Origin: Monocercomonoides exilis PA203
Taxonomy: Eukaryota > Protista > Preaxostyla
Length of the DNA: 64,000 nt
Assembly: GCA_001643675.2 (NCBI GenBank)
Contig: LSRY02000021.1
Span: 1,343,047 to 1,407,046 of the forward strand
Direction: 5' to 3'
In this document: positions 5,695 through 63,850 of the stretch, piece by piece
Numbering within the stretch: the first letter of the stretch is position 1
How the letters are laid out: each line of letters opens with the position of its first letter
Made by a program: the position numbers and the translations under genes
Notes under the pieces: generated by a model
Database searches by the model: none
The model's input: the letters and a program-made list of their open reading frames with translations, nothing else
What the model was told of the DNA's origin: nothing

Positions 5695-5997
5695 TCAAAA
5701 CAGATTGTCCTCGCATTTGGCATGCACAAAATAAGGAAAGCGTGTGCACTCTCCAAAGCGCCCGTTTTCCGAGTTGGAGCACAAACAAGAGCAGATAGGC
5801 ATCGTCTGGGTTTCTGATTTTATTGCTGTCTGGAGAGGCGAAGGATTCAGGGGTGGGGGTGGGTGAAAGAATGCTTCTGTGATGAGAACGCTGCCATCAA
5901 GCGAGATGCGCTTGTTGGAGCTGGAAGCATATTGCTCTTTGAATCGAGATTTTGGAACAGATTCCATTTCTTCGGGTCTTTGAAGGCACATGCACAT
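5695..5997 (-). pseudogene. Short ORF with a degenerate PHD-finger-like motif (second copy at 62593-62895 +)
   Basis: ICSCLCSNSENGRFGECTRFPYFVHAKC resembles the first part of a C4HC3 PHD with one Cys replaced by Phe. The last Cys pair is not in frame. Confidence 0.3.
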
Positions 5998-6489
5998 TAA
6001 AGCTATTTATTATTTTCACAACAGCCTTGAAATGGATCGAAGCTTCTGTCAAAGAACTGGTGAAAAGAAAAGAAAAGAAAGGAGAGAAATGGAAAGAATT
6101 CTGCGTATTTGTTGATTGCCATGAATAAAAAAATAAAATAAAATAAAATAATAAATATTTTTGCAGCATCTGCGCAGCTGCACCCGATCAAAAACGAAAG
6201 TCTGGCCAGCAAAACAAGATTACAAAACATACGAAAAGGCACGGTGATTGTGAGATCACACATTGCTTGGATGGAGGTGCGCAGAAGCGAAGTGGCAATG
6301 CTGCTGGCTTGGAAACGCAACACAAACACCAAAAACTTGAATAGCTGAGAATGCTGCAAAAGCAATTGTCATTGATATTTCTTTCTTTTTTTTCTTTCTC
6401 CCCTTTTTTCTTCATTGCGCGATGCAAGCCAGACGGTGGGTGGTGCACAGGCACACAGACACACAGGCTCAAATGCTGGAGGGAGCCAG

Positions 6490-9400: not shown

Positions 9401-12400
9401 GCCTGCACATGCCTCACTCCGTGTGACACGCTTCGACAAGGATTGTCCTGCTTCCCACACTGGTTGCTGTCTTCAGACTCCATCGACACAAACACCTGCG
9501 GCGTGTACAGAAATGTGATCAGCGGGATGAGATCGATGTCTGAATGTGCTGAGTCGCTCCCACAGATCGATGTGTTCATGCGCAGCGAGGGCTGCGAAAA
9601 GTCAAGAGCGAAAAGTGTTTCGTTGATCTGCTCACCGATCGAATGGCAGTTGATAAACACATCCTTCCCCATGAATGCACTGTTCATCATGAATTGAACA
9701 CTCGCAACGTGAAGAAGAAGCGGTTTGGAAGGGGTTTGAAAGGGAGCATCTGGATCGCAAAAGTCCAGCATCATCCCGCCTCCTCTCCCTGTGCTCTCAG
9801 AACAAGCACACAACACAAATGTGCAGTTTTTCACTCCCAGGCTCGACTCCTCATTCTTCATGTGCATCATCAGCCCTCCTCCTCTGTTGCTTTGCCGGCT
9901 GAGGCAGTTCCAGAACGTGCAGTTCTCCATTCCACACTTCAATCCAGCAAACTCATCCACACCCAAAAACACTGATCCTTCCTCAGTTCTCGACACATTC
10001 TCGACTGTGACAGATGTCATGTTCATTGATGGGCAATCCACTGGCAAATCGGGTGAATCTCCTAAAGCCAACTGATTTGAATGGAGTCCAGTGGGGAAAA
10101 CTGATATGAAACTGTCAGAAGAAACAGACGAATTGATGAACGATGTGTTGTGCATGTGCGCTGAATGGAAATTGGCTGACAGTCGCAGAAAAGGATTTGC
10201 CAGAGACAAAGTCGCAAGTGCACAGTGCTCCAGGGAGACATCCCCTTCCGCAATGTCAAGCACACACAAGGAAGAAGAAGAAGGAGACAAGGTGTCAGAT
10301 GGAATGAACCTGCAAAGAGAGAAAGACACCGAATACACAGAGCGGATGAATGATTTGTGGAACTCATATCTGCTCGGAAGATCGATTATTAGGTTTGAAA
10401 AGGAAGCATTCACCGAGTTGGAGATCAGCGAGCCATCATCCGAGGAATCTCCATCACCAGATACGAACAAGTGCACAGCCTCATCACCTCCTTCAACTGA
10501 AATCAAAGGCCGGTTTTCATCAGACGGTTTGGAAGGCAGCAAGGATACTGAATGTTTGAGTGAAGCTGATCCTTCCACTTTGATGATCGATTTCTCCAAA
10601 CCAACTGGAGAGAATCGCATTTTGATCATGTGGTCGATCGAGGAGCATGGCGCTTCTGAATATCCACATCCACTGAAGCCTCCTCCTTTCTCTTTCGAAA
10701 CAAACCCTTTCCCACTCCAATTTGACCACAAATACACAACAAGCGGGATCTCATATTCTTCTCCTGTTGTCATCCCTTCCCATCCACACAACTCATCCAG
10801 TGATTCCAACTCCTCTGAACTCATCTCCCATTTCAAATGATCCTTGTTCACAACTTCCCTCAAATCCCATCCTGAAACAAACAGATTCTTCCCTTTCCAG
10901 GCATTGCATCCCTCAAATGTCATTCCTTCCATCACAAATTTCTCTATTTCCTCTGGCAATGCAACAAACATTCCTCCTCCCATTCCCTTTCCTCCATCCT
11001 CAATATCCACTGACGGAACTTCACATTCAGACAAATTCACATTTTTCATTTCCAAACTCCCTCCACTTCCAATTAATATCATCATCCCTCCTCCTCTCAG
11101 TCCTTCTTCGTTTTTGCACTTTGATGATATGTTCGTGTTTTTGATCGATATGGTTCCTCCCCCACTCGTTTCCACTTTCACGCATCCTCCACTTCCTCCC
11201 TCGTTTGCCATCTCTGTCAATGTGCATCCCTCAACTGCCACTCGTGATGCTCCGTTCACATTGATTGGCGAAAGCTCAGCGAAAGTGATATCCTCAGAAA
11301 CAACCAATCCTGTGAGCTCCAATTCACCTCCACTCACATGAATTAACGAAAATGCCACAGAGCTCGCAAGAGTGTCAGCTGAAAATACAATCGAAATATT
11401 GCTCAAAGAGAGAAAGATTGATGACTGAATAATCGAAGATATTGAGGAAGGAAGAACACGAGGAAGAGCAAAAGAGAGAAAAGACAGAGAAAAGCTGCCA
11501 GAGCACTGAATAACATTGTGGCAGTCAGTGGAGATATTGTCAGTCAAGCCAACATTCACCAAGGGATATTGGCTCGAAGAAGATGATGCAGATGAAGAAG
11601 AAATTGATATTTGAGATGTTTGAAACAACGGCACAACAAACGGATTCTTGATCGATGCTGATGATATCACTTCCATCGCATTCACAAGCTCATTCACTCG
11701 CTCACGAACACAGAAGTCGATTGTTGAACAGCAGAAAACGGAATATCCGCAATGCGAATGATCTGCACCACTCCTTTCGTCAACTGATATGGGAGATTCA
11801 AAATCACACAAATACACACACAGCGGAATAACTGGCAACGATGTCCCATCCTCGCATCCACACAACTTCTCTTCATTATTCATGCAGTTTCCATCTTTGA
11901 AGAATCCAAAGGATGCTTGATCAATTATCTCTTCCAACAAAAGCCCGCTTCCACACTGAACAAACACATCACTTCCATGAAAAGCTCTGTTTGGGTTTTC
12001 TTCAGAAAATATCACAGATTCATAAATGGTGAAATCCGATTCAGTCGAATCAACATTTATGAACAACCCTCCTCCTCTCCCCTTTTCCTCAAGACTTCCT
12101 GCACAACATCCCTCAAACATTGTTGTTCCATTCACAATCAACTCTCCTTTCCATTCTCCTCTCATCCCCAGACCACCACCATCTTTTCCTGCTGACACAT
12201 TCTCAAAATGGCAGTTTTCAACAACAACACTCCCAGAGGATGCATCATTTCTCTCAATTATTCCTCCACTTCCTGATTCCCTTTGAATCGATGTGATGTT
12301 TGTGTTCACCACGTGCAACACCGATCCAGACTGATTCACATTGAATGAAATCAAACTGTCAGAAATGAAATTCATGTCAGAAATTCCAACTCCTGACAAT

Positions 12401-14343
12401 TCCACATTTCCTCCAAATATCTGCATGAAAGACACCTCAAGCAGCAATTTACTGTCAACTGATGATATTTCGCATTCCTCCATTGTCAATGATCCATCGC
12501 CATCCATCACCACAAATGGCTTGCTTGTCCCACTCTCTGCATCCCCTTGCAGCATTGTCACTTTCTGAACACAAAAGGTTCCAGATGAAATTTGAAAAAC
12601 TGATTCAAGCGATGATGCTGATTGCACAACACATTCATTCTTTGACAATCCACAAACGCTGAATTCATTGGATGAAATTGATATTTGTTCTTCTTTGAAC
12701 ACACTTGGTCGCAGGATGAGAGTTTTGTTCGAATTGCTTGTTGATCTTCCGAGCGAATATTTGATAGAGCGACAAAAAGGGGCAAAACCACACTGCTCAT
12801 GATCAATGCCAACTGAATAGTCAGCTGTTATTTGATAATTATTCTCATTATTGGTCATCCACGAACTCAGATCTGATATATCAGTGCAAGTGTAATCACC
12901 GTTTTTGCATCTTGTGATTCTCGGGGAAGCACTTGAAGAATAGCAATCAGTAATGTTGTTTTCATCAATCGTCATCCACTGATGATAACATCCAATGTGA
13001 ATATCATGTCCGTAAGCATTATTTTTTGCTGTATTGTTATGGAAAAGACAATATTTAATGTTTATTGAAGGATTATTAAGTTCTTCTTCTTCTGCGAAGA
13101 ATATACAAGGAGCATAATTCCCACTTTTGCAATTCTGCATCGAACAATTTGAAATCAATATAAATGTGCTTACGCGCCATATATGAGTAACTGCTGAATA
13201 TGCTTCTGAGCTTGCATTGTCGAAAACACATGAAACAACGATGCATGGATTCTTATTGCATGCAGCCCAATAAAAACATGTTTTGCTGTTTGAAGAACAA
13301 TTGATCATCGAAGTCACATTTATCACTCCAGAATCAATATCCCCACATTGAAATCCTCCTGTTTCTCCTGGAGACGAACATTTGCACACATAACAATTTT
13401 CAGAAACAAATATCCCATTTGAATGATACATAGCAACAGCACCACAACCGATTTTTGAAGAGCATTCCAAGAATGAACAACGGTGAAGTATTATTGATGC
13501 ATTTCCCTCTGCTTGCAAGGCGCCACCAGCTTCATCACTCTGAACATTGAATGTGCCATCGTCAAACACATTTTCTCCTTCTGTGAAAATTTGTCTTTTG
13601 TTATAAGTTGTGAAGCATTTCAAAAACGAACAATTTCCACTTCGAAAAGAGATCATCGCAGGCGAAAGAATGCCTCCAGAATATGGACTTTCACAACCAA
13701 TCATCTCCGTTCTTTCCACCAGGACTCGGTCAGAGCATCCATTTCCATTGTCGCACTTTTTCATTGATTTTGGCAAAGTGATATTTTCGAACAAAGAATC
13801 CGATACAGATATTGATGAAAGACAACTTGAAGAAAGAAATGGCTCATTTCCATGAACTTCAAATGATGAAATCCTTGAAGAAGACAAGCACAATTCACCA
13901 CAATGATGAAGAACTTCCTTTGAACGATGTGCAATCAAAGACGATAATTGGCGATCATGAACCACAAAATTGATTGAAATATTGCTGAGACATATTCGGC
14001 CTGCAGAACAGCCAAGCAGATTTTTTGATTGTGGATGGACTGAAAACGAACAACAGCAAATATCCAGTCTCGAATGTGAATCAACTGATGCAAAATACTT
14101 CTCCATGTTCATGAAATATGAAAGTGTAGACAAGTTAATTGTTGAATTCTGGACAACAAAAAATGAATGATCATTTTCCGCTTCACCTTGCATGCTCTTT
14201 TCTTTGTTTGTCTGCTCAAATGATAATCCTTGATTATCTGAACTCAAAATTGTTGTTGAACAACAACAAAATTCAATTCCATCAATGTTGTTTCCAGAAA
14301 CCAACAAACAAAATAAGAGGCACCCTATAATGAGCAAATTCAT
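6490..14343 (-). CDS. Large single-pass surface receptor-like protein (2617 aa): signal peptide, Cys/Gly-rich beta-helix-like ectodomain with GGA/GGG repeats, TM, C-terminal pseudokinase C-lobe
   Basis: Intronless ORF with a hydrophobic N-terminus, repeated GGAL/GGGL/GGGM motifs and CG....PC.SI modules. TM segment IWPIIVIIMAVILVIVLIVSIVVTIRWRK. The tail RWKAPELL...VVFSIGMMVWECLTLQIPF...RPTL matches kinase subdomains VIII-XI (TK/TKL-like). Confidence 0.9.
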   Translation of the reverse strand: MNLLIIGCLLFCLLVSGNNIDGIEFCCCSTTILSSDNQGLSFEQTNKEKSMQGEAENDHSFFVVQNSTINLSTLSYFMNMEKYFASVDSHSRLDICCCSFSVHPQSKNLLGCSAGRICLSNISINFVVHDRQLSSLIAHRSKEVLHHCGELCLSSSRISSFEVHGNEPFLSSSCLSSISVSDSLFENITLPKSMKKCDNGNGCSDRVLVERTEMIGCESPYSGGILSPAMISFRSGNCSFLKCFTTYNKRQIFTEGENVFDDGTFNVQSDEAGGALQAEGNASIILHRCSFLECSSKIGCGAVAMYHSNGIFVSENCYVCKCSSPGETGGFQCGDIDSGVINVTSMINCSSNSKTCFYWAACNKNPCIVVSCVFDNASSEAYSAVTHIWRVSTFILISNCSMQNCKSGNYAPCIFFAEEEELNNPSINIKYCLFHNNTAKNNAYGHDIHIGCYHQWMTIDENNITDCYSSSASPRITRCKNGDYTCTDISDLSSWMTNNENNYQITADYSVGIDHEQCGFAPFCRSIKYSLGRSTSNSNKTLILRPSVFKEEQISISSNEFSVCGLSKNECVVQSASSLESVFQISSGTFCVQKVTMLQGDAESGTSKPFVVMDGDGSLTMEECEISSVDSKLLLEVSFMQIFGGNVELSGVGISDMNFISDSLISFNVNQSGSVLHVVNTNITSIQRESGSGGIIERNDASSGSVVVENCHFENVSAGKDGGGLGMRGEWKGELIVNGTTMFEGCCAGSLEEKGRGGGLFINVDSTESDFTIYESVIFSEENPNRAFHGSDVFVQCGSGLLLEEIIDQASFGFFKDGNCMNNEEKLCGCEDGTSLPVIPLCVYLCDFESPISVDERSGADHSHCGYSVFCCSTIDFCVRERVNELVNAMEVISSASIKNPFVVPLFQTSQISISSSSASSSSSQYPLVNVGLTDNISTDCHNVIQCSGSFSLSFLSFALPRVLPSSISSIIQSSIFLSLSNISIVFSADTLASSVAFSLIHVSGGELELTGLVVSEDITFAELSPINVNGASRVAVEGCTLTEMANEGGSGGCVKVETSGGGTISIKNTNISSKCKNEEGLRGGGMMILIGSGGSLEMKNVNLSECEVPSVDIEDGGKGMGGGMFVALPEEIEKFVMEGMTFEGCNAWKGKNLFVSGWDLREVVNKDHLKWEMSSEELESLDELCGWEGMTTGEEYEIPLVVYLWSNWSGKGFVSKEKGGGFSGCGYSEAPCSSIDHMIKMRFSPVGLEKSIIKVEGSASLKHSVSLLPSKPSDENRPLISVEGGDEAVHLFVSGDGDSSDDGSLISNSVNASFSNLIIDLPSRYEFHKSFIRSVYSVSFSLCRFIPSDTLSPSSSSLCVLDIAEGDVSLEHCALATLSLANPFLRLSANFHSAHMHNTSFINSSVSSDSFISVFPTGLHSNQLALGDSPDLPVDCPSMNMTSVTVENVSRTEEGSVFLGVDEFAGLKCGMENCTFWNCLSRQSNRGGGLMMHMKNEESSLGVKNCTFVLCACSESTGRGGGMMLDFCDPDAPFQTPSKPLLLHVASVQFMMNSAFMGKDVFINCHSIGEQINETLFALDFSQPSLRMNTSICGSDSAHSDIDLIPLITFLYTPQVFVSMESEDSNQCGKQDNPCRSVSHGVRHVQAGLFNAICVDSSSVVAEPTVVSDLTLKSITKHQSAIHFNSSIEEESEGSWIMLFENECLVEDCLFSFDEHFSAEHTAIMKQLNGSLAFSGCTLQSSSVESTLNSSVIVVEGGVFEMEKSSICVMGTAQPLFLFKGGSAATLNQIEISTIKTTATAMIVESSASVNIMQLAASDIRLCGENFISLAKGKNQHVNEKDAGERVVLQMGISSFSNITSSSSSSSNSHVVESACEKTRSQLLNCSFERCFTPSEKGSLVEISSGASLSLQSCELIGCEDEHQSEKNGADEDVCKWTGSVVDVCEGLLEMKDTSITNSSKGGLSISGGSAVIESCLFENNSKRIERYRSARRNVFCTGSGTLNVVDLKGGDGWERNTSLWILNEGCKLLGIAAERSSEFFIPTLKSVETTQKEDTVELTFRGTLLLPCNLGFQIVSKINNVSSIETHAFAEDEFVSEEEVQGKIGSSLVSSAPTEAEVAVCILFGNVSNPSSTESFVLKNKSESEPKGDEKIVEGGKKEKSIWPIIVIIMAVILVIVLIVSIVVTIRWRKVKNEAKDLREIVNDTVRKDPKLIEMVTMEMSPEEQWRRAEREAEKKNEERMKKRVYEKSLGHSESSEHLLSESGSTEYILGRDSDKIPEWMLEKVDEKEEEEEETRKRTPSPSISSTSTTDTSDTESTFVRGEDLCPTTSSMSNLVDAMACSSPHEKLIVDLRDSMFMLLHGRNKTKEMAIGTLQEREQTAAQILFWVANLALHSFDEMNNPLQSLANLSPHIVLFSEHMVICIALHSDCSSDDSDSSSISSTTTIATSSSDCSCANGNGRGSPPPSSAFEDEDDFRKECMRWKAPELLSGAKGHATKKTVVFSIGMMVWECLTLQIPFGEYEAEAAGQKIANGERPTLCSCEGISLGQTACAAMSQQPHSRPTLQELKKAFIALFPPASAMLTASDAIDLVDATGIPPPSALPASAVSETLTSF

Positions 14344-17300
14344 AGAATGTTGAGAATCAATAATTTTATTATGGTTCTGAAAGAATTATCTCAATTATTG
14401 TTTGTTTCAATAAAAAAGTTTTTCTCTTTCAAATCGAGAATTTGACAATCTCAGCCCAATTAGATCATGAGCAGTTGTAATCAAAGAAAAAGATAGATGA
14501 ATATTTGATTGTGGAAGAATAGATTGTGAAATTACCAATTCATCAATGATCCAAATGAACAAATTCCAATCAATTCCTTCTGCACGAATCTGTATCTGTG
14601 AATTAACTAATAAATAATAGAATTCCGTTCAAAGAGCACTTCAAATTAATCTCTGTTGTGGTGGTTGAAAAACATTCCAAAAAAAAATCAGAAGATAGAT
14701 TTTTTGTTTGTGAATATCTTCCGATGTTTCATTCATCAGTTTTATTGGTTCTTGAAAACGTTATCAACAGAATTTCACATGCGTTTGAACCACATCTCCA
14801 AAAAAGTCGTTGAAGAAGAAAAGTTGAAAGAACATGGTAGCCGAATAAATGAATTAGAGAAAATGCGCTCACAAATGGAATACATCAGAAGTTCAGTGAA
14901 TTCCTCATATGAGTTCAATTCGAGGTATTTTTTAATATTCATTAATATTTGCATTTCAAGAATATATTTTTCTGTTTTGATCATTCCTCATTATGAAAGT
15001 GTTGAATTTGAAAAATATTGAAATTGCCAAATGTGAGCAGCTGAAGTTTGTCCTGTTTTAATTAAGCTGAAAACATCTTCTTTTGTTGATTGGGCATCTT
15101 CACAATCATGGCTTTGTGTGCTGGATGCATTCACCAACGGTCTTGTGAAAATGAAAATTAAGATTGTCATTCTTTTCAATGTGCAAACTGTTCTCCAACA
15201 CCTGTGGTTATCGTGTGTTGAGATAATGAAAGAGCTTGATGATGTCATTTTCATGTGATGTGCAATGTGTTCTGTTTTTTTGAGTGTCAATGAATGAGAA
15301 CTTACAAATGCGAACTCTTTGCAAATCCATCAAATGAACTGCGGAAATGATGCGAAATCAGATGCACGACACGCATTTATTCGGACCAAGTGTGTGGTTT
15401 GAACCAATCGCTTTTGTTATTCCTTGACGCCCAAATTTCACAGCGAGCACAGTCAAGTGTTTTTCACAACCATATTCTATTATTAGATGAATTGCACAAT
15501 TTTTGTATAATTGTGAAATTATTGAAATAATTTGAAATTCGTTTATGTTATTTTGAAATAATCAAGTAATTTTGAAATTTTTCAGAAAAATTGAAAATAA
15601 GGCAGTTATTTTAAGTTCCACCAACAAATTTCAAGTTTTATAAAATTGTGGGAAGATCTCATATTTTTCACAGTATTTTTTGCACATTCGAAAATAGCTG
15701 TTTATTTGTCACAACTGTTATTAAATATTTAATATTCAATTATCAGAACATTTACCAACAAATTTTTCGAAATAAATCCTTTTTCGTATTTTTGTGAAAA
15801 TCGTTAAGAAAAAAAATATTATTCAGCGTTTTCTACGATTATTGAAATGTTTCCATGAACAATAAATGATTGTTCTTATTTAAAACATTTCAAAAATTTA
15901 ATATTAAATGGTTAAATATTACTGATTTGCAAAAATCAACAGAATACATCAAATATCAAAAAAGAGAGCTATTTAAATTTAAGAACATTTCAAATATTGA
16001 TGTTATGCACAATAATGAATATTTCCTGGAGAAAAAAATGTCACTGTTTCTTGTAAAACAAGGCAAAAAAACTGAAAAAGAAAATCAAATTAGATTTCGA
16101 TAATGCATGCTCATTATACAATTCTATTAACAATAAAAACACTATTCAAAGCTTTTTGCAAATCTTATTGTTTCTTCGTTTTCCTCTTATTCTACTTCTC
16201 AATATATCATTTTTTTAATCTTCAAAACTTATTTGATCCATTTCTCTTGTTTATTTCAATGTGAATTTCATCGCCTCCTTTCTGCCTTCCAAAAAAATTC
16301 ATCAAAGCCTAATCGTCTATTCTGCTTCCACTTAAATAACTCTGCAAACTCCATTCTATAAAAAACAGTCAAAGAAGAAGATTCCTTCAGAAGAATCACT
16401 TCCCATCCCTTGTTGATGTATTGCCTTCTTCTTCTCTCCATTTCCTCCAAAACAACATCACATCAACGCATCCACTTCCCAATCTGACCATTCTCCCAAC
16501 CAAAAAAAATCTATTTTCATTCTTTTTCTATCTCCTTTGAAAGGTACCTTCCCATAGTCAGCCCCTCATCTCGTTCCATCCCTGTCGCACCTCTGTCTCC
16601 ACACCCCCAATGCAAAGTGCTGCGTTCAATGTTCCTTCTTCCTCTCTTCCTCCACCTCAGCCTCCATCCCCAACCCAGAAAATGAGAGGCGCGTCTAAAC
16701 CGTTCATCTAATAAAAAAAAAAATCAAAATAAAAAATTCTTCCTCACATTTTTCCCCCTTCAACCCCACTTCTCTTTCTTATTAAACACTCACTCACAAA
16801 TACTCTTTCTCTTGCTCCACCTCATTCGCCTCCTCCCTTTCTCTGCATTTAAAAAATAACATCTCCTCCCCATTCCTTTTCCATATCTCTCCATTTCCGA
16901 TCCAACTCTAATCCTCCCCTCCAATAAATATACTCCATTCACTCCGCCCATCTTCTTCCCTTCTTATCTTCCATCTCATCTTACCTCCTCAACATCAAAT
17001 TCCATTTCTCCAATAATTAACACAACACCCACTCCTTTCAAATAACATAAATCTCAAAAACAACTATACAGCTTCATTTCAATCCATCTCCAACACATAC
17101 ATTTCCACAACAAAACTCCACAAAAATGCCTGTTTCTCTCCCCAAAAAACCCCTCACACTCTCCATTCAACTTTAAAACCCTGTTTCTCCCTAACCACTC
17201 AAATCCTTCCTAAAGCACAATAAATCCATTCTTTTGTAATCACGTTGTCTTCATATGTCATTTCAGCCACAGCGCATCGTGTTGTGCCCCTTTTCTGAAT

Positions 17301-52295: not shown

Positions 52296-55200
52296 TGAAA
52301 AATGATTATGTTAAAAAGAAAGAAAGAAAAAAGGAAAAAAATAAAAAAAGAAAGAAAGAAAGAAAGAAAGAAAGAAAATACCGGATTGAAAAAATATTAA
52401 CACTGTTTCTATCGCAAAAAGAGACGAGAAACTGAGATTGAAATAATTGTTGCAGAAAACAATTTTTGTAATTTTCACACAAACAAAAAACTGAATCGAA
52501 TAATAGAATATGGTTGTGAAAAACACTTGACTGTGCTCGCTGTGAAATTTGGGCGTCAAGGAATAACAAAAGCGATTGGTTCAAACCACACACTTGGTCC
52601 GAATAAATGCGTGTCGTGCATCTGATTTCGCATCATTTCCGCAGTTCATTTGATGGATTTGCAAAGAGTTCGCATTTGTAAGTTCTCATTCATTGACACT
52701 TAAAAAACAGAACACATTGCACATCACATTAAAAAATACATCATCAAGAACATTTCTCACAGTTTTCAACCGCATATAAACAATGATTTGATTTTGTTCG
52801 TTCAATTACCTTGAGAGAACAAATTTTACTATTTCATCGCATCTGATATACAGTCTTCACATTTGCTGTCTCATTTTCACCATCTCTTCTCTTTTCTCCA
52901 GATAAATCTCTTCACTTCTTTTCTTTTCTCTTTTTCTTCCAAATCCACGCTTCCTTTATTTTTCTCAACCAATCTCCAACATTCATTTCATTAGCCAACA
53001 ATCTTTTCAGAGAACACAATCCGACTGATGAGCTTCAATTCAAACTGGAAAAAATCACTTTCATTCAATCAATAACGAATCGTTTCGCCTTTTGCAACAC
53101 TTGTTTTCCTCTCGATTGTTTTTTCTGCTTTCTGCATTTGATCATTCTGGCTCTCAAATACTCTGAGCAAAGAAGCATTGCACAAATTTTCAGTTGAATG
53201 AATAATTGCTGATCCACATGAGGCACATGTTTGGAAAGTCAACTTGCATTATTTGTTTGATCCTTATCAAAACGTCACCCGAGGCGAATGAGATATGCTT
53301 TTCACCATTCTGAAGAAGCATGAAAGCAACAAACATTTCTGTTTCAAAATTCAATCATAACTCTCTTTCTTTATCTCCGTGCACAAAAACCTAAATCACA
53401 AACGCATCATTTGTCCATTGAAAAGAAAGGAAAGCTTTATTTCAGATTTCATCCTTTTCGTTGTTGAATGAACTTAGTCATCCCAAACAGTCAAGGACAA
53501 TGTGAGCAAGTCACTGAAAAAGAGGCTTTCAGTTTTATTAAAACAGGACAAACTTCAGCTGCTCACATTTGGCAATTTCAATATTTTTCAAATTCAACAC
53601 TTTCATAATGAGACATGATCAAAACAGGAAAACATATTCTTGAAATGCAAATATTAATGAATATTAAAAAATACCTCGAATTGAACTCATATGAGGAATT
53701 CACAGAACTTCTGATGTATTCCATTTGTGAGCGCATTTTCTCTAATTCATTTATTCGGCTACCAAGTTCTTTCAACTTTTCTTCTTCAACAACTTTTTTG
53801 GAGATGTGGTTCAAACGCATGTGAAATTCTGTTGATAACGTTTTCAAGAACCAATAAAACTGATGAATGAAACATCGGAAGATATTCACAAACAAAAAAT
53901 CTTTTTTCTGATTTTTTTTTGGAATGTTTTTCAACCACCACAACAGAGATTAATTCGAAATGCTCTTTGAACGGAATTCTATTATTTATTAGTTAATTCA
54001 CAGATACAGATTCGTGCAGAAGGAATTGATTGGAATTTGTTCATTTGGATCATTGATGAATTGGTAATTTCACAATCTATTCTTCCACAATCAAATATTC
54101 ATCTATCATTTTCATTTATAGCAACTGCTCATGATCTAATTGGGCTGAGATTGTCAAATTATCTATTTGAAAGAGAAAAACTTTTTTATTGAAACAAACC
54201 ATAATTGAGATTATAATTTCAGAACCATAATAAAATTATTGATTCTCAACATTCTATGAATCTGCTCATTTTGTGGTGCCTCGCGTTTTATTTGTTGGTT
54301 TCTGGAAACAACATTGATGGAATTGAATTTTGTTGTTGTTCAACAACAATTTTGAGTTCAGATAATCAAGGATTATCATTTGAGCAGACAAGCAAAGAAA
54401 AGAGCATGCAAGGTGAAGCGGAAAATGATCATTCATTTTTTGTTGTCCAGAATTCAACAATTAACTTGTCTACACTTTCATATTTCATGAACATGGAGAA
54501 GTATTTTGCATCAGTTGATTCACATTCGAGACTGGATATTTGCTGTTGTTCGTTTTCAGTCCATCCACAATCAAAAAATCTGCTTGGCTGTTCTGCAGGC
54601 CGAATATGTCTCAGCAATATTTCAATCAATTTTGTGGTTCATGATCGCCAATTATCGTCTTTGATTGCACATCGTTCAAAGGAAGTTCTTCATCATTGTG
54701 GTGAATTGTGCTTGTCTTCTTCAAGGATTTCATCATTTGAAGTTCATGGAAATGAGCCATTTCTTTCTTCAAGTTGTCTTTCATCAATATCTGTATCGGA
54801 TTCTTTGTTCGAAAATATCACTTTGCCAAAATCAATGAAAAAGTGCGACAATGGAAATGGATGCTCTGACCGAGTCCTGGTGGAAAGAACGGAGATGATT
54901 GGTTGTGAAAGTCCATATTCTGGAGGCATTCTTTCGCCTGCGATGATCTCTTTTCGCTGCGGAAATAGTTCGTTTTTGAAATGCTTCACAACTTTCAACA
55001 AAAGACAAATTTTCACAGAAGGAGAAAATGTGTTCAATGATGGCACATTCAATGTTCAGAGTGATGAAATGGGTGGTGCCCTGCACGCTGAGGGAAATGC
55101 CTCAATAATATTGCATCGTTGTTCATTCTTGGAATGCTCTTCAAAAATCGGTTGTGGTGCTGTTTCAATGGAAAATTCAAATGGAATATTTGTTTCTGAA

Positions 55201-58200
55201 AATTGTTATGTGTGCAAATGTTCGTCTCCAAAAGAAACAGGAGGACACAGACTCTATAATGTTGATTCTGGAGCTGTTAATTCGACCAAATTTTTCAACT
55301 GTTCGTCTTTCGGGAAAACATGTTTTTATTTTCTTGCTTGTGAAAAGAATCCATGCATCGTTGTTTCATGTGTTTTCGACAATGCAAGTTCAGATGAGTA
55401 TTCTTCAGTTACTCACTTCTGGCACGTTAGCACATTTATATTGATTTCAAATTGTTCGATGCAGAATTGCAAAAGTGGGAATTATGCTCCTTGTATATTG
55501 TTTGCTTTTGTTGAGGAATTTAATAAACCATCAATAAATATCAAACATTGTCTTTTCCATAACAATACAGCAAAAAACAATGCTTACGGACATGATATTC
55601 ACATGTGTAATTATCAACAGTGGACGAAGATTGATAAAAACAACATAACTGATTGTTATTCTTCAAGTGCTTCCCCGAGAATCACAAGATGCAAAAACGG
55701 TGATTACACTTGCACTGATATATCAGATCTGAGTTCGTGGATGACCAATAATGAGAATAATTATCAAATAACAGCTGACTATTCAGTTGGCATTGATCAT
55801 GAGCAGTGTGGTTTTGCCCCTTTCTGTCGCTCTATCAAATATTCGCTAAAGAGAACAACAAGAAATTCGAACAAAACTCTGATTCTGCGACAAAGTGTGT
55901 TCAAAGAAGAACAAATATCAATTTCATCCAATGAATTCAGCGTTTGTGGAATATCGAAGCATGAATGCATTGTGCAATCAGCATCATCGCTTGAATCAGT
56001 TTTTCAAATTTCATCTGGAACCTTTTGTGTTCAGAAAGTGACAATGCTGCAAGGGAATGCAGAGAGTGGGACAAGCAAGCCATTTGTGGTGATGGATGGC
56101 GATGGATCATTGACAATGGAGGAATGCGAAATATCATCAGTTGACAGTAAATTGCTGCTTGAGGTGTCTTTCATGCAGATATTTGGAGGAAATGTGGAAT
56201 TGTCAGGAGTTGGAATTTCTGACATGAATTTCATTTCTGACAGTTTGATTTCATTCAATGTGAATTGGTCTGGATCAGTGTTGCATGTGGTGAACACAAA
56301 CATCACATCGATTCAAAGGGAATCAGGAAGTGGAGGAATAATTGAGAGAAATGATGCATCCTCTGGGAGTGTTGTTGTTGAAAACTGCCATTTTGAGAAT
56401 GTGTCAGCAGGAAAAGATGGTGGTGGTCTGGGGATGAGAGGAGAATGGAAAGGAGAGTTGATTGTGAATGGAACAACAATGTTTGAGGGATGTTGTGCAG
56501 GAAGTCTTGAGGAAAAGGGGAGAGGAGGAGGGTTGTTCATAAATGTTGATTCGACTGAATCGGATTTCACCATTTATGAATCTGTGATATTTTCTGAAGA
56601 AAACCCAAACAGAGCTTTTCATGGAAGTGATGTGTTTGTTCAGTGTGGAAGCGGGCTTTTGTTGGAAGAGATAATTGATCAAGCATCCTTTGGATTCTTC
56701 AAAGATGGAAACTGCATGAATAATGAAGAGAAGTTGTGTGGATGCGAGGATGGGACATCGTTGCCAGTTATTCCACTGTGTGTGTATTTGTGTGATTTTG
56801 AATCTCCCATATCAGTTGACGAAAGGAGTGGTGCAGATCATTCGCATTGTGGATATTCCGTTTTCTGCTGTTCAACAATCGACTTCTGTGTTCGTGAGCG
56901 AGTGAATGAGCTTGTGAATGCGATGGAAGTGATATCATCAGCATCGATCAAGAATCCGTTTGTTGTGCCTTTGTTTCAAACATCTCAAATATCAATTTCT
57001 TCTTCATCTGCATCATCTTCTTCGAGCCAATATCCCTTGGTGAATGTTGGCTTGACTGACAATATCTCCACTGACTGCCACAATGTTATTCAGTGCTCTG
57101 GCAGCTTTTCTCTGTCTTTTCTCTCTTTTGCTCTTCCTCGTGTTCTTCCTTCCTCAATATCTTCGATTATTCAGTCATCAATCTTTCTCTCTTTGAGCAA
57201 TATTTCGATTGTATTTTCAGCTGACACTCTTGCGAGCTCTGTGGCATTTTCGTTAATTCATGTGAGTGGAGGTGAATTGGAGCTCACAGGATTGGTTGTT
57301 TCTGAGGATATCACTTTCGCTGCGCTTCCGCCAATCAATGTGAACGGAGAATCACGAGTGGCAGTTGAGGGATGCACATTGACAGAGATGGCAAACGAGG
57401 GAGGAAGTGGAGGATGCGTGAAAGTGGAAACGAGTGGTGGAGGAACCATATCGATCAAGAACACGAACATATCATCAAAGTGCAAAAACGAAGAAGGACT
57501 GAGAGGAGGAGGGATGATGATATTAATTGGAAGTGGAGGGAGTTTGGAAATGAAAAATGTGAATTTGTCTGAATGTGAAGTTCCGTCAGTGGATATTGAG
57601 GATGGAGGAAAGGGAATGGGAGGAGGAATGTTTGTTGCATTGCCAGAGGAAATAGAGAAATTTGTGATGGAAGGAATGACATTTGAGGGATGCAATGCCT
57701 GGAAAGGGAAGAATCTGTTTGTTTCAGGATGGGATTTGAGGGAAGTTGTGAACAAGGATCATTTGAAATGGGAGATGAGTTCAGAGGAGTTGGAATCACT
57801 GGATGAGTTGTGTGGATGGGAAGGGATGACAACAGGAGAAGAATATGAGATCCCGCTTGTTGTGTATTTGTGGTCAAATTGGAGTGGGAAAGGGTTTGTT
57901 TCGAAAGAGAAAGGAGGAGGCTTCAGTGGATGTGGATATTCAGAAGCGCCATGCTCCTCGATCGACCACATGATCAAAATGCGATTCTCTCCAGTTGGTT
58001 TGGAGAAATCGATCATCAAAGTGGAAGGATCAGCTTCACTCAAACATTCAGTATCCTTGCTGCCTTCCAAACCGTCTGATGAAAACCGGCCTTTGATTTC
58101 AGTTGAAGGAGGTGATGAGGCTGTGCACTTGTTCGTATCTGGTGATGGAGATTCCTCGGATGATGGCTCGCTGATCTCCAACTCGGTGAATGCTTCCTTT

Positions 58201-61200
58201 TCAAACCTAATAATCGATCTTCCGAGCAGATGTGAGTTCCACAAATCATTCATCCGCTCTGTGTATTCGGTGTCTTTCTCTCTTTGCAGGTTCATTCCAT
58301 CTGACACCTTGTCTCCTTCTTCTTCTTCCTTGTGTGTGCTTGACATTGCGGAAGGGGATGTCTCCCTGGAGCACTGTGCACTTGCGACTTTGTCTCTGGC
58401 AAATCCTTTTCTGCGACTGTCAGCCAATTTCCATTCAGCGCACATGCACAACACATCGTTCATCAATTCGTCTGTTTCTTCTGACAGTTTCATATCAGTT
58501 TTCCCCACTGGACTCCATTCAAATCAGTTGGCTTTAGGAGATTCACCCGATTTGCCAGTGGATTGCCCATCAATGAACATGACATCTGTCACAGTCGAGA
58601 ATGTGTCGAGAACTGAGGAAGGATCAGTGTTTTTGGGTGTGGATGAGTTTGCTGGATTGAAGTGTGGAATGGAGAACTGCACGTTCTGGAACTGCCTCAG
58701 CCGGCAAAGCAACAGAGGAGGAGGGCTGATGATGCACATGAAGAATGAGGAGTCGAGCCTGGGAGTGAAAAACTGCACATTTGTGTTGTGTGCTTGTTCT
58801 GAGAGCACAGGGAGAGGAGGCGGGATGATGCTGGACTTTTGCGATCCAGATGCTCCCTTTCAAACCCCTTCCAAACCGCTCCTTCTTCACATTGCGGGTG
58901 TTCAATTCATGATGAACAGTGCATTCATGGGGAAGGATGTGTTTATCAACTGCCATTCGATCGGTGAGCAGATCAACGAAACACTTTTCGCTCTTGACTT
59001 TTCGCAGCCCTCGCTGCGCATGAACACATCGATCTGTGGGAGCGACTCAGCACATTCAGACATCGATCTCATCCCGCTGATCACATTTCTGTACACGCCG
59101 CAGGTGTTTGTGTCGATGGAGTCTGAAGACAGCAACCAGTGTGGGAAGCAGGACAATCCTTGTCGAAGCGTGTCACACGGAGTGAGGCATGTGCAGGCTG
59201 GGCTGTTCAATGCGATATGTGTTGACTCATCGAGTGTGGTGGCTGAGCCGACAGTCGTCAGCGATCTCACGCTGAAGTCGATCACCAAACACCAATCAGC
59301 AATTCATTTCAATTCATCGATTGAAGAGGAGTCTGAGGGATCGTGGATCATGTTGTTTGAAAACGAGTGTTTGGTCGAAGACTGCTTGTTTTCGTTTGAC
59401 GAGCATTTCTCAGCAGAGCACACAGCGATTATGAAGCAATTGAATGGATCGTTGGCATTTTCAGGCTGCACTCTGCAGTCATCATCTGTTGAGTCTACTC
59501 TCAATTCGAGTGTTATTGTGGTTGAAGGAGGAGTGTTTGAGATGGAGAAGAGCTCGATATGTGTGATGGGCACAGCTCAGCCATTGTTCCTCTTCAAGGG
59601 TGGGTCAGCTGCCACTCTGAACCAGATCGAGATATCCACAATAAAAACAACTGCAACTGCAATGATTGTTGAGTCGAGTGCATCAGTGAACATCATGCAG
59701 CTGGCTGCATCTGACATTCGGCTGTGTGGGGAAAACTTTATTTCTCTGGCAAAGGGGAAGAATCAGCATGTGAATGAGAAAGATGCTGGAGAAAGGGTTG
59801 TTCTGCAGATGGGCATATCATCGTTCTCAAACATCACCAGCAGCAGCAGCAATTCCCATGTGGTTGAGTCGGCGTGTGAAAAAACAAGAAGCCAATTGTT
59901 GAATTGTTCGTTTGAAAGATGCTTCACACCTTCAGAGAAAGGGAGCTTGGTGGAAATATCATCTGGGGCATCTCTGTCTCTGCAGTCATGCGAACTGATT
60001 GGATGTGAGGATGAGCATCAGAGCGAAAAGAATGGAGCAGATGAGGATGTGTGCAAATGGACTGGATCGGTTGTTGATGTGTGTGAAGGGTTGCTGGAGA
60101 TGAAGGACACATCGATCACAAACTCTTCAAAAGGCGGGCTGTCGATCAGTGGTGGAAGTGCTGTTATCGAAAGCTGCTTGTTTGAGAATAACAGCAAAAG
60201 CATCGAAAGATACAAGTCTGCAAGAAGAAACGTATTCTGCACAGGCAGCGGAACACTCAATGTTGTTGATTTGAAAGGAGGAGATGGATGGGAAAGAAAT
60301 ACTTCACTTTGGATTTTGAATGAAGGATGCAAGCTGTTGGGGATTGCTGCTGAAAGATCATCCGAGTTCTTCATTCCAACGCTGAAGTCAGTTGAAACAA
60401 CTCAAAAAGAAGATACTGTTGAACTGACTTTCAGAGGGACGCTTCTTCTGCCATGCAATCTGGGATTCCAGATTGTGTCAAAAATAAACAATGTCAGCTC
60501 AATCGAGACTCACGCTTTTGCGGAAGATGAGTTTGTTTCTGAGGAAGAAGTCCAGGGCAAGATAGGTTCGTCTTTGGTAAGCCCTGCTCCAACAGAAGCA
60601 GAAGTGGCTGTGTGCATATTGTTTGGAAATGTTTCTAATCCATCTTCCACAGAATCTTTTGTTCTGAAGAACAAAAGTGAATCTGAACCAAAAGGAGATG
60701 AAAAGATTGTTGAAGGAGGAAAGAAAGAAAAATCTATATGGCCGATTATTGTTATTGTGCTTGTGGTTATATTGTTGATTGTTCTTATCATTGCAGTTGC
60801 ATTTATTGTTCGATGGAGAAAGGTCAAGAATGAAGCGAAAGATCTGAGGGAGATTGTGAATGATACAGTGAGAAAAGATCCGAAATTGATTGAGATGGTG
60901 ACAATGGAGATGTCGCCTGAAGAGCAGTGGAGGAGAGCTGAGAGAGAGGCAGAGAAGAAGAATGAAGAAAGGATAAAAAAGAGGGTGTATGAAAAAAGCT
61001 TGGGACACTCGGAGTCATCAGAGCACCTTCTTTCTGAGAGTGGATCAACTGAATATATTTTGGGAAGGGATTCAGACAAGATTCCTCAATGGATGTTGGA
61101 AAAGGTGGATGAGAAAGAAGAGGAGGAGGAAGAGACCAGAAAGCGAACACCATCACCATCCATTTCATCCACTTCAACCACAGACACTTCAGACACTGAA

Positions 61201-63529
61201 TCCACTTTTGTTCGGGGAGAGGATCTGTGCCCCACCACCTCGTCGATGTCGAATCTGGTGGATGCAATGGCCTGTTCATCGCCTCACGAAAAGCTGATTG
61301 TGGATCTGAGGGATTCGATGTTCATGCTGCTTCACGGGAGGAACAAGACAAAGGAGATGGCAATTGGAACTCTGCAGGAAAGAGAGCAAACAGCTGCTCA
61401 GATCCTGTTCTGGGTGGCAAATCTTGCGCTCCACTCCTTCGACGAAATGAACAACCCGCTCCAATCGTTGGCCAATCTGAGTCCGCACATTGTGCTGTTC
61501 TCGGAACACATGGTCATCTGCATTGCGCTCCACTCCGACTGCTCCTCAGATGATTCTGACTCTTCGTCCATCTCATCAACCACAACTATTGCCACCTCTT
61601 CCTCTGATTGCTCGTGTGCGAATGGGAACGGCAGAGGATCGCCTCCGCCCTCATCGGCGTTTGAGGATGAAGATGATTTCAGGAAGGAGTGCATGCGGTG
61701 GAAGGCGCCGGAGCTGCTGAGCGGCGCAAAGGGGCACGCAACAAAGAAGACGGTGGTGTTTTCGATCGGGATGATGGTGTGGGAGTGCCTGACGCTGCAG
61801 ATCCCGTTTGGGGAATACGAAGCAGAAGCTGCCGGGCAGAAGATTGCGAACGGGGAGAGGCCAACACTGTGCAGCTGCGAGGGCATTTCGCTCGGCCAGA
61901 CAGCATGCGCCGCAATGTCGCAGCAGCCCCACAGCAGGCCCACGCTCCAGGAGCTCAAGAAAGCGTTCATCGCGCTGTTTCCGCCTGCCTCTGCCATGCT
62001 CACAGCCTCTGACGCAATCGACCTCGTCGATGCCACAGGCATCCCCCCTCCCTCCGCTTTGCCTGCTTCCGCTGTCTCAGAGACGCTCACCTCGTTTTGA
62101 CTGGCTCCCTCCAGCATTTGAGCCTGTGTGTCTGTGTGCCTGTGCACCACCCACCATCTGGCTTGCATCGCGCAATGAAGAAAAAAGGGGAGAAAGAAAA
62201 AAAAGAAAGAAATATCAATGACAATTGCTTTTGCAGCATTCTCAGTGATGCGAGTTTTTGGTGTTTGTGTTGCGTTTCCAAGCCAGCAGCATTGCCACTT
62301 CGCTTCTGCGCACCTCCATCCAAGCAATGTGTGATCTCACAATCACCGTGCCTTTTCGTATGTTTTGTAATCTTGTTTTGCTGGCCAGACTTTCGTTTTT
62401 GATCGGGTGCAGCTGCGCAGATGCTGCAAAAATATTTATTATTTTATTTTATTTTATTTTTTTATTCATGGCAATCAACAAATACGCAGAATTCTTTCCA
62501 TTTCTCTCCTTTCTTTTCTTTTCTTTTCACCAGTTCTTTGACAGAAGCTTCGATCCATTTCAAGGCTGTTGTGAAAATAATAAATAGCTTTAATGTGCAT
62601 GTGCCTTCAAAGACCCGAAGAAATGGAATCTGTTCCAAAATCTCGATTCAAAGAGCAATATGCTTCCAGCTCCAACAAGCGCATCTCGCTTGATGGCAGC
62701 GTTCTCATCACAGAAGCATTCTTTCACCCACCCCCACCCCTGAATCCTTCGCCTCTCCAGACAGCAATAAAATCAGAAACCCAGACGATGCCTATCTGCT
62801 CTTGTTTGTGCTCCAACTCGGAAAACGGGCGCTTTGGAGAGTGCACACGCTTTCCTTATTTTGTGCATGCCAAATGCGAGGACAATCTGTTTTGATTTAT
62901 CGACAAAGATGTTGCAAGGACACAAATGCCTGCTGATCACAATAACAAAAAGTGATAATCTGTCCAGAAGATGCACATGTGTCGAGTGAAAAAGAATATC
63001 GTCAGCATATTTTCTTTTTGTCTTTTCACAACAAGAATGCTTTCATTTGCCCATTTTTAGTCCCAGCAATGGGCCTATTTTCATGTCTTGTTTTTCAGAT
63101 AGCGGGGGGTTTCCATATTTCAATTGTTTAAAAAAGAAAAGAAAAGAAATGAAATGAAATCACAAAGCAAAAGGAAAAAACAAACTCTGGAAAGTGAATA
63201 ATTACCATTTTTATTTTTATGTTTTGGGGGAGGAAAATCATGAGATTTTTTTAAAAACCGAATATTCAAAGCATTTTCCCGGTTTGAAGATATCGCAGCT
63301 TCTCGTATTCCATGCTACCAATAAAGACATCACCCTAATTGCTCTTTACGAGGCACTTCTGAATGAATGATGAACATCAACTCTTCTATCGCACCAAATT
63401 GGTCTTTTCTGAATTCTTTATAAAAAATTAATGGAATAACGGTTCGTGATTGATTCAAATTATTTATCAGTCAAACAGATGGTTCCTTCTCTAATTTCAA
63501 AAATTACTCCAAAAGATTTTTTAAAAAAT
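52225..63529 (-). repeat. Right copy of the inverted segmental duplication
   Basis: Reverse complement of the 5060-22040 unit. Lacks the 6.3-kb insertion and has a different ~770-bp segment at ~52750-53520. Confidence 0.92.
54256..62100 (+). CDS. Paralogous surface receptor-like pseudokinase (2614 aa)
   Basis: Near-identical to 6490-14343 except for the signal peptide, residues ~235-575, the TM/juxtamembrane patch, a Ser tract and a few scattered substitutions. Confidence 0.9.
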   Translation: MNLLILWCLAFYLLVSGNNIDGIEFCCCSTTILSSDNQGLSFEQTSKEKSMQGEAENDHSFFVVQNSTINLSTLSYFMNMEKYFASVDSHSRLDICCCSFSVHPQSKNLLGCSAGRICLSNISINFVVHDRQLSSLIAHRSKEVLHHCGELCLSSSRISSFEVHGNEPFLSSSCLSSISVSDSLFENITLPKSMKKCDNGNGCSDRVLVERTEMIGCESPYSGGILSPAMISFRCGNSSFLKCFTTFNKRQIFTEGENVFNDGTFNVQSDEMGGALHAEGNASIILHRCSFLECSSKIGCGAVSMENSNGIFVSENCYVCKCSSPKETGGHRLYNVDSGAVNSTKFFNCSSFGKTCFYFLACEKNPCIVVSCVFDNASSDEYSSVTHFWHVSTFILISNCSMQNCKSGNYAPCILFAFVEEFNKPSINIKHCLFHNNTAKNNAYGHDIHMCNYQQWTKIDKNNITDCYSSSASPRITRCKNGDYTCTDISDLSSWMTNNENNYQITADYSVGIDHEQCGFAPFCRSIKYSLKRTTRNSNKTLILRQSVFKEEQISISSNEFSVCGISKHECIVQSASSLESVFQISSGTFCVQKVTMLQGNAESGTSKPFVVMDGDGSLTMEECEISSVDSKLLLEVSFMQIFGGNVELSGVGISDMNFISDSLISFNVNWSGSVLHVVNTNITSIQRESGSGGIIERNDASSGSVVVENCHFENVSAGKDGGGLGMRGEWKGELIVNGTTMFEGCCAGSLEEKGRGGGLFINVDSTESDFTIYESVIFSEENPNRAFHGSDVFVQCGSGLLLEEIIDQASFGFFKDGNCMNNEEKLCGCEDGTSLPVIPLCVYLCDFESPISVDERSGADHSHCGYSVFCCSTIDFCVRERVNELVNAMEVISSASIKNPFVVPLFQTSQISISSSSASSSSSQYPLVNVGLTDNISTDCHNVIQCSGSFSLSFLSFALPRVLPSSISSIIQSSIFLSLSNISIVFSADTLASSVAFSLIHVSGGELELTGLVVSEDITFAALPPINVNGESRVAVEGCTLTEMANEGGSGGCVKVETSGGGTISIKNTNISSKCKNEEGLRGGGMMILIGSGGSLEMKNVNLSECEVPSVDIEDGGKGMGGGMFVALPEEIEKFVMEGMTFEGCNAWKGKNLFVSGWDLREVVNKDHLKWEMSSEELESLDELCGWEGMTTGEEYEIPLVVYLWSNWSGKGFVSKEKGGGFSGCGYSEAPCSSIDHMIKMRFSPVGLEKSIIKVEGSASLKHSVSLLPSKPSDENRPLISVEGGDEAVHLFVSGDGDSSDDGSLISNSVNASFSNLIIDLPSRCEFHKSFIRSVYSVSFSLCRFIPSDTLSPSSSSLCVLDIAEGDVSLEHCALATLSLANPFLRLSANFHSAHMHNTSFINSSVSSDSFISVFPTGLHSNQLALGDSPDLPVDCPSMNMTSVTVENVSRTEEGSVFLGVDEFAGLKCGMENCTFWNCLSRQSNRGGGLMMHMKNEESSLGVKNCTFVLCACSESTGRGGGMMLDFCDPDAPFQTPSKPLLLHIAGVQFMMNSAFMGKDVFINCHSIGEQINETLFALDFSQPSLRMNTSICGSDSAHSDIDLIPLITFLYTPQVFVSMESEDSNQCGKQDNPCRSVSHGVRHVQAGLFNAICVDSSSVVAEPTVVSDLTLKSITKHQSAIHFNSSIEEESEGSWIMLFENECLVEDCLFSFDEHFSAEHTAIMKQLNGSLAFSGCTLQSSSVESTLNSSVIVVEGGVFEMEKSSICVMGTAQPLFLFKGGSAATLNQIEISTIKTTATAMIVESSASVNIMQLAASDIRLCGENFISLAKGKNQHVNEKDAGERVVLQMGISSFSNITSSSSNSHVVESACEKTRSQLLNCSFERCFTPSEKGSLVEISSGASLSLQSCELIGCEDEHQSEKNGADEDVCKWTGSVVDVCEGLLEMKDTSITNSSKGGLSISGGSAVIESCLFENNSKSIERYKSARRNVFCTGSGTLNVVDLKGGDGWERNTSLWILNEGCKLLGIAAERSSEFFIPTLKSVETTQKEDTVELTFRGTLLLPCNLGFQIVSKINNVSSIETHAFAEDEFVSEEEVQGKIGSSLVSPAPTEAEVAVCILFGNVSNPSSTESFVLKNKSESEPKGDEKIVEGGKKEKSIWPIIVIVLVVILLIVLIIAVAFIVRWRKVKNEAKDLREIVNDTVRKDPKLIEMVTMEMSPEEQWRRAEREAEKKNEERIKKRVYEKSLGHSESSEHLLSESGSTEYILGRDSDKIPQWMLEKVDEKEEEEEETRKRTPSPSISSTSTTDTSDTESTFVRGEDLCPTTSSMSNLVDAMACSSPHEKLIVDLRDSMFMLLHGRNKTKEMAIGTLQEREQTAAQILFWVANLALHSFDEMNNPLQSLANLSPHIVLFSEHMVICIALHSDCSSDDSDSSSISSTTTIATSSSDCSCANGNGRGSPPPSSAFEDEDDFRKECMRWKAPELLSGAKGHATKKTVVFSIGMMVWECLTLQIPFGEYEAEAAGQKIANGERPTLCSCEGISLGQTACAAMSQQPHSRPTLQELKKAFIALFPPASAMLTASDAIDLVDATGIPPPSALPASAVSETLTSF

Positions 63530-63850
63530 TTCAAAGTTTAATTCAAACTAATTATTAAAATTTACAAAAGGGAAATGTTTTGTTCGTTATCGAATTACTT
63601 GAATTTTTGTAGAAATTTTTTCTATTCAATTTAAAGTGGATTATATATTGGTGATTATTTTTGAAATCACATTTTTTTCGGGATGTTAATTTTTCAAAGT
63701 TTTTTGTCATTGGGAAGTGGTTTTATTTTGAAATAGTTAATTCATCTCTTCTGTTTCAAAAACAAATATCTTGCTTGAATAAGCATGTGGATGTCTCTGA
63801 TAAGCCTTATCATTTTTCAGTGTTCATTTGTTAATATTCAAGTGTCAAAA

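Follow-up and report, generated by a model that had tools for sequence, protein, structure and literature searches.

A stretch of 64,000 nt of DNA (the window; all coordinates are positions in it) of Monocercomonoides exilis PA203, a gut protist that has no mitochondria, carries two copies, A and B, of a gene for a large membrane protein. The copies differ mainly in short patches of a predicted beta-helix in the N-terminal part of the protein. The same domain is a peak of divergence in two other pairs of paralogues, one further relative is a mosaic of A and B, and the cytoplasmic domain lacks the kinase catalytic motifs. We estimate a probability of about 0.6 that these are beta-helix receptor pseudokinases in which conversion homogenises most of the gene, and in which alternative patches on the groove face of the helix are kept by selection and swapped between copies, giving each copy a different binding surface. 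The pattern of variation is real and is more than one plain conversion tract, but falls short of proven diversifying selection.

The two genes lie in a 10,045-nt inverted duplication. The left arm is at 5041..15082 (-) and the right arm at 53517..63547 (+), and the arms are 97.6% identical. Each has one long open frame. Copy A (6490..14343, -) encodes 2617 aa, and its exact protein is in the public collection as P0009 (P-numbers denote sequences of that collection). Copy B (54256..62100, +, which is the strand of all B features given below) encodes a single-pass membrane protein of 2614 aa. The aa identity is 96.8%. Both proteins begin with a hydrophobic stretch, followed by about 2150 aa of Cys/Asn-rich ectodomain, a second hydrophobic run at residues 2162–2185 and a cytoplasmic part; the two hydrophobic segments were identified by eye. 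In the public gene model of B, P0010, the protein starts only at residue 597, which leaves out the signal peptide and all of the variable domain. The frame of B is open from 54256, and the region missed by P0010 is 54256–56043; public gene models can evidently cut off the variable domain. Several relatives are likewise modelled without the N-terminus, and P0041 is modelled without 82 aa inside the variable domain. The flanks of A and B differ at 27 of 739 nt upstream (3.7%) and at 15 of 1449 nt downstream, where about 1.25 kb is identical between the arms; a preliminary description made from the sequence had noted a downstream flank that is almost identical. Inside the genes, 564 nt at 54393–54956 are identical.

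At several patch positions, A-type as well as B-type letters are present in contigs from public DNA runs, and the patches are therefore unlikely to be consensus errors. Sequencing error is rejected, since neither frame is interrupted, many of the changes are silent and each type is seen in contigs. Mis-assembled allelic haplotypes are also rejected, because approximately 38 kb with other genes lies between the two inverted copies, a public gene model exists for each, and M. exilis cells are reported as monoploid in the available part of PMC6759080. As regards programmed somatic diversification (DGR, Ig gene conversion, antigenic variation), which may leave base-biased changes or draw on template cassettes, the differences (AT 28, CT 24, AG 17, GT 17, AC 8, CG 3) show no adenine-only pattern, and no silent cassette of the variable domain is found elsewhere in the 64-kb window. 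The summed contig depth at 80% likeness, which is not a measure of copy number, dips at 55177–55390 in all four public runs examined; this fits other copies diverging there. For one RNA-run contig, two pieces carry 8 and 26 mismatches to B, which are the exact A versus B counts there. This is a weak hint that A may be transcribed, as an RNA library can hold DNA. B-type patch letters were not seen at the listed positions in two RNA runs, where contigs show presence only and give no evidence that B is silent.

A comparison of the two proteins shows 81 aa differences, of which 52 are in residues 235–575 and 41 in residues 270–465. With uniform scatter (10,000 draws) the best 196-aa window holds a mean of 12 and a maximum of 21 differences, compared with the 41 observed. 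The preliminary description gave residues 235–575 as the variable region and quoted seven motif pairs (EAGGALQ/EMGGALH and others), all of which are present at their places. The core is narrower than that, i.e., residues 270–465 (55063..55650 in B; 12949..13536, -, in A), with pS 0.29 and pN 0.13 (proportions of synonymous and nonsynonymous differences). Residues 466–530 are identical at the protein level, and residues 531–572 represent a separate patch. At the DNA level the core consists of six islands of divergence of 21–114 nt, which follow the seven rungs of the predicted helix. They are at 55069..55116 (rung 1, codons 272–287, 11 nt differences), 55165..55185 (rung 2, codons 304–310, 6 differences), 55231..55344 (rungs 3 and 4, codons 326–363, 43 differences, with the back face of rung 3 included), 55389..55428 (rung 5, codons 378–391, 11 differences), 55500..55546 (rung 6, codons 415–431, 15 differences) and 55605..55656 (rung 7, codons 450–467, 11 differences). 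Most of the Cys/Asn scaffold is kept, as had been proposed, with Cys at 23 of 28 positions and Asn at 30 of 38.

Divergence is also found outside the variable helix. Two patches at codons 531–546 and 566–572 (55848..55969) are mostly B-specific, B being mostly the odd copy there. A second dense patch coincides with the hydrophobic transmembrane (TM) segment (60739..60810) and has 11 replacements in 19 codons, with pS 0.56 and a ratio of nonsynonymous to synonymous rates (dN/dS) of 0.28. It is a divergence peak also against P0011 and P0008, and P0001 and P0005 carry the B type. The patch could alter pairing in the membrane or represent a neutral imported tract. Behind it, codons 2233–2285 (60943..61101) have 10 synonymous and 2 replacement changes, which by sequence is the look of a plain conversion tract in a constrained region. 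There are four further changes in the signal peptide. The remainder of the protein, described earlier as near-identical, is so overall, but the TM patch, the synonymous tract and the signal peptide changes had been missed.

Codon tests were made on the A/B pair. In residues 235–575, pS is 0.221, pN is 0.091 and dN/dS is 0.37, which equals the whole-gene value; the core has a dN/dS of 0.39. The preliminary description proposed a sliding-window dN/dS, and named a ratio well below 1 with equally raised synonymous divergence as an outcome that would refute a diversifying surface. Taken literally, that outcome is what is found. Codons 576–2164, which contain four further ectodomain modules (Cys-motif boundaries 518, 865, 1226 and 1629), have a pS of 0.008, and homogenisation extends to the first 234 residues. 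When core codons are classed by their variability in four other paralogues, dN/dS is 0.06 at 84 invariant codons, 0.34 at 62 codons and 0.95 at 50 family-variable codons. It is 1.07 at the 16 most variable codons, with a bootstrap range of 0.58–1.80 for variable sites. The ratio is thus close to 1 and never clearly above, and positive selection at the variable sites is not shown by these codon comparisons. Islands that resist conversion would be expected to gather silent changes as well, which would damp dN/dS.

The alternative offered earlier for such values is a single plain conversion tract from an older paralogue that replaced residues 235–575 of one copy. The regional dN/dS of 0.37–0.39 with pS of 0.22–0.29 is in its favour, and such tracts occur in the gene, e.g., codons 2233–2285. 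A single imported tract nevertheless fits poorly because the divergence sits in islands parted by four identical runs of 44–71 nt; one run of 167 nt also breaks up the divergent region. The pS at codons for the same amino acid falls off with distance to the nearest replacement, from 0.51 (1 codon) and 0.25 (2–3 codons) to 0.05 (4–6 codons) and 0.11 (at least 7 codons; p = 0.0009 given the replacement positions). When single tracts are simulated under site-specific constraint, with doublet mutations at up to 30%, they have 0.2–0.9 identical runs of at least 40 nt versus the four observed (P <= 0.007), and the observed adjacent fraction is high in comparison (P 0.02–0.04). The mean-distance statistic failed to reject a single tract in the simulation (P 0.27–0.39), which counts for the tract and against retained patches. 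Five other paralogues cover the region, and none of them follows A or B throughout; the same domain peaks in other pairs. One plain tract is probably not the origin of the region; as the sole cause it is largely refuted, and we consider it very improbable.

All eight relatives from the first protein search are named Monocercomonoides exilis, and ten close relatives besides A and B are estimated to lie on five contigs; seven sequences in all cover residues 270–465. A search of 1.84 billion representatives gave 22 matches, and nine of the ten looked up are M. exilis. Several short matches of the variable domain are Chlam_PMP-repeat proteins, which are the best non-oxymonad sequence matches. A metagenome scan with a family alignment gave 393 pattern matches and no relatives.

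The divergence peak recurs in this family. In P0003/P0017, an independent pair on another contig, the differences per successive 100 residues are 2, 3, 14, 46, 18, 3 and 1, with the peak of 46 at residues 301–400. This pair shares 29 variable columns with A/B versus 16.3 expected (p = 7e-6). In the distant pair P0030/P0043 there are 24 differences in 198 positions inside the domain and 7 in 295 outside (p = 2e-5). The peak is thus present in three of five pairs, in subfamilies as distant as approximately 25% identity. P0001 is a mosaic of the two copies, with 19 consecutive A-type informative sites (333–388) followed by 12 B-type sites (390–458; runs test p = 1e-4). An older gene model matches P0001 from residue 450 on, and the switch point itself (388–390) is taken from the P0001 sequence.

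Structure modeling predicts a beta-helix of the right-handed parallel type. The AlphaFold2 model of B residues 150–530, built with 17 sequences, has a mean pLDDT (predicted local distance difference test score) of 85 and a pTM (predicted template modeling score) of 0.85, and displays a continuous helix from residue 150 to approximately residue 490 (54703..55725). In this pectin-lyase-like fold each coil has three parallel strands, and a ladder stacks at the short T2 turn. An earlier model from eight sequences has a mean pLDDT of only 55, but its strand calls agree with the later model. The best structural matches are alginate epimerases, tailspikes, the adhesin PfbA and polysaccharide lyases (2pyg, 4nk8, 7eea, 4mr0), with Z scores of 23–24 and tied top rows (top 24.4, root mean square deviation 3.3 with 293 residues aligned; overall 2.8–4.1 A, 271–303 aligned, 8–12% identity). 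Foldseek gave no match at E <= 0.001 for either model, a PDB sequence search with residues 18–620 gave none, and a PDB profile search, made with an alignment that leaves out the non-homologous P0040, gave only kinase C-lobes among the 60 matches listed. The beta-helix proposed in the preliminary description is supported by this confident model. The spacing of its clusters, given there as 25–35 aa, agrees with rungs of 26–34 aa in the model, where a Cys occupies the ladder position of the short T2 turn in four of seven rungs; the autocorrelation of the differences themselves is only 0.16 and 0.13 at lags 27 and 28.

In two of four pairs the differences favor the predicted groove face. In A/B, 31 of 108 positions differ on parallel beta-sheet PB1 with turns T1 and T3, the assigned groove face, compared with 10 of 91 on PB2/PB3 (p = 0.003). 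For outward PB1 positions alone the values are 8 of 21 versus 7 of 56 (p = 0.02). P0003/P0017 has 51 of 108 on the groove face and 27 of 91 on the others (p = 0.013). The predicted groove face also carries the invariant residues D270, E271, E327, K354, D447 and H449. Invariant or near-invariant Y358, H/Y387, W/F389, D447 and H449 are predicted to point outward on PB1 amid the variable residues; Y358, D447 and H449 are invariant, and positions 387 and 389 stay aromatic or His.

Several observations weigh against selected, groove-facing patches. Faces were allotted with the alignment already in view, by reading the DSSP string together with the ladder at the short turn, and no coordinates were used. 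The claim that the variable residues line one face holds as an enrichment only: 10 of the 41 classed A/B differences are on other faces, with rung 3 affected on its back face, and significant bias is missing in two of four pairs, i.e., P0011/P0002 (38 of 108 versus 30 of 91, p = 0.77) and P0030/P0043 (17 of 111 versus 7 of 90, p = 0.13). Across six paralogues, outward PB1 is not more variable than outward PB2/PB3 (0.41 versus 0.36, p = 0.59). T1 and T3 are loops, which are variable in most beta-helices. Two distant pairs show no peak: P0027/P0041 (5 of 73), where one model has the 82-aa gap, and P0020/P0025, which is only partly covered. Six of seven triplets tested have no significant mosaic signal. 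The dN/dS of 0.95–1.07 at variable sites also fits relaxed constraint, and the TM helix is highly divergent though unable to bind an outside ligand.

Some of these points are shared by the main rival explanation, that of neutral islands. Here exposed sites are unconstrained, and the mismatch of a drifted patch blocks conversion so that the patch diverges further, with no ligand-driven selection. A dN/dS of about 1 at variable sites, the highest variation in T1 loops (0.54) and the similar dense patch in the TM helix are consistent with this. Neutral islands do not readily account for the four other ectodomain modules, which stay at pS 0.008, for homogenised residues 1–234, or for the same domain peaking in three pairs from subfamilies down to approximately 25% identity. 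We regard this explanation as unlikely, and it is the strongest of the rivals.

Another possibility is escape: the distal domain would be exposed to attack by host antibodies, viruses or bacterial antagonists, and its variation would evade them. The variable domain is the most membrane-distal, and variation spills onto other faces in rung 3, as would be expected of such a target. Yet residues 1–234 are likewise distal and are uniform, and a receptor is a better fit than a coat both for the conserved cytoplasmic pseudokinase and for the aromatic and charged residues that stay invariant amid the variable face. Escape seems improbable on this evidence.

The proposed explanation, retained and exchanged groove patches, would involve the following. 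Interlocus gene conversion would homogenise the stalk, the cytoplasmic domain and the scaffold between the islands, and selection would retain alternative groove patches, which would be the reason the islands persist. Conversion would also recombine groove patches between copies. As a guess from the fold, the ligand may be glycans on the surface of gut bacteria that the cell eats; that signalling may pass through the pseudokinase as a scaffold is a guess as well. A bolder and rather doubtful extension is a combinatorial recognition repertoire, where rung-sized groove cassettes are exchanged by ongoing short-tract conversion and yield new specificities within a clonal lineage, tracking capsules and O-antigens of gut bacteria. 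If true, this would be a protist counterpart of the shuffling in plant resistance (R) genes and the major histocompatibility complex (MHC), on a fold used by phage tailspikes.

The cytoplasmic part has a match to the kinase C-lobe only (61681..61965; PF07714 above cut-off, profile positions 164–257 of 258). The kinase catalytic motifs are GxGxxG, VAIK, HRD and DFG. A and B have none of these in the cytoplasmic part, where only APE is present, and HRD and DFG are also missing in five more distant full-length relatives. Because the catalytic motifs are missing, the domain is most likely a pseudokinase. In the available part of PMC6759080, 332 tyrosine kinases are predicted in M. exilis, 320 of them tyrosine kinase-like (TKL), the largest family of the genome. 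TKL genes of M. exilis overlap unclassified repeats according to the portion of PMC8767320 at hand. This largest gene family is without described function, and a candidate specificity domain of approximately 200 residues is now located. The confident fold and natural variants that differ almost only in that domain make the sensed ligand testable with a few expressed domains.

The window has other features. A second, nested inverted duplication (26255–30232/32891–36866, 3978 nt, 99.9% identity) carries a broken distant member of the family, consisting of an 825-aa open reading frame (ORF) and a TM-bearing ORF, with 41% identity to A over 1001–1732. The spacer of this inner repeat has an ISXO2-like (IS1595-type) transposase ORF at 31201–32244 (-; Pfam E 1.8e-23), around which no clear terminal inverted repeats were found. 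Three inverted copies of 255–279 nt with 97–100% identity (22196–22474/38546–38824, 21786–22044/52244–52502 and 15235–15488/52495–52748) may be small mobile elements or remnants of nested inversions. The ORF at 45602–51886 (+) encodes a serine-rich protein of 2094 aa that has a hydrophobic segment in its C-terminal part and a tail predicted to be coiled-coil-like; it has no Pfam match and its exact sequence is missing from the protein collection. The ORF at 18584–19426 (+) has an IQCH-like ATP-grasp match (PF24923, E 3.4e-09) and is probably one exon of a longer gene.

A and B can be compared with several known systems. One is the TKL family of the same organism: PF07714 is found in relatives of A/B, one of which bears the name putative tyrosine/serine-threonine kinase. 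The ectodomain, the fold, the lost catalytic motifs and the hypervariable region are not described in the available parts of PMC6759080 and PMC8767320. A literature search of incomplete coverage, with supplements outside it, found no description of the M. exilis ectodomain or its variation, including in the accessible part of PMC10703272.

The nearest biological analogue is the B1 family of transmembrane kinases of Entamoeba histolytica, also a gut protist. As presented in the available part of PMC2880585, these have many near-identical copies, many of them truncated, and share the layout of signal peptide, Cys/Asn-rich ectodomain, TM helix and kinase. They differ in that the tested member EhTMKB1-9, whose ectodomain has approximately 900 aa, is an active kinase, and no hypervariable face is reported in that part; the likeness drawn here is one of layout. 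Chlamydial and trichomonad Pmp proteins are likewise beta-helical surface proteins, but those of trichomonads end in a short tail and not a kinase (PMC6701047, in the part available). Neither A nor B has a Chlam_PMP/PF02415 match, and the domain contains only one each of the GGA[ILV] and FxxN motifs that recur in Pmp proteins.

Polysaccharide lyases, epimerases, tailspikes and PfbA have the same fold as the model (Z 23.6–24.4) at 8–12% identity. The ties include protein-binding adhesins, and a shared fold shows no function. In beta-helical lyases the PB1/T1/T3 groove binds the substrate and loops set selectivity, as stated in the available part of PMC9410043.

The evolutionary pattern is already known. 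Under interlocus gene conversion, peaks of divergence and shuffled haplotypes are described for red/green opsins, MHC and plant R genes, e.g., Cf-4/Cf-9, in the accessible part of PMC3924837. The A/B family resembles these in its uniform scaffold, local islands of divergence and mosaic copies. Unlike them, it has a predicted right-handed beta-helix as scaffold, one island per rung and a monoploid protist as host, and selection and ligand are only proposed here. The literature searched, which is incomplete, gave no instance of the pattern on an oxymonad receptor with a beta-helix and a pseudokinase. Should both selection and copy-specific binding hold, the beta-helix scaffold and a protist lineage would join the known diversifying recognition systems.

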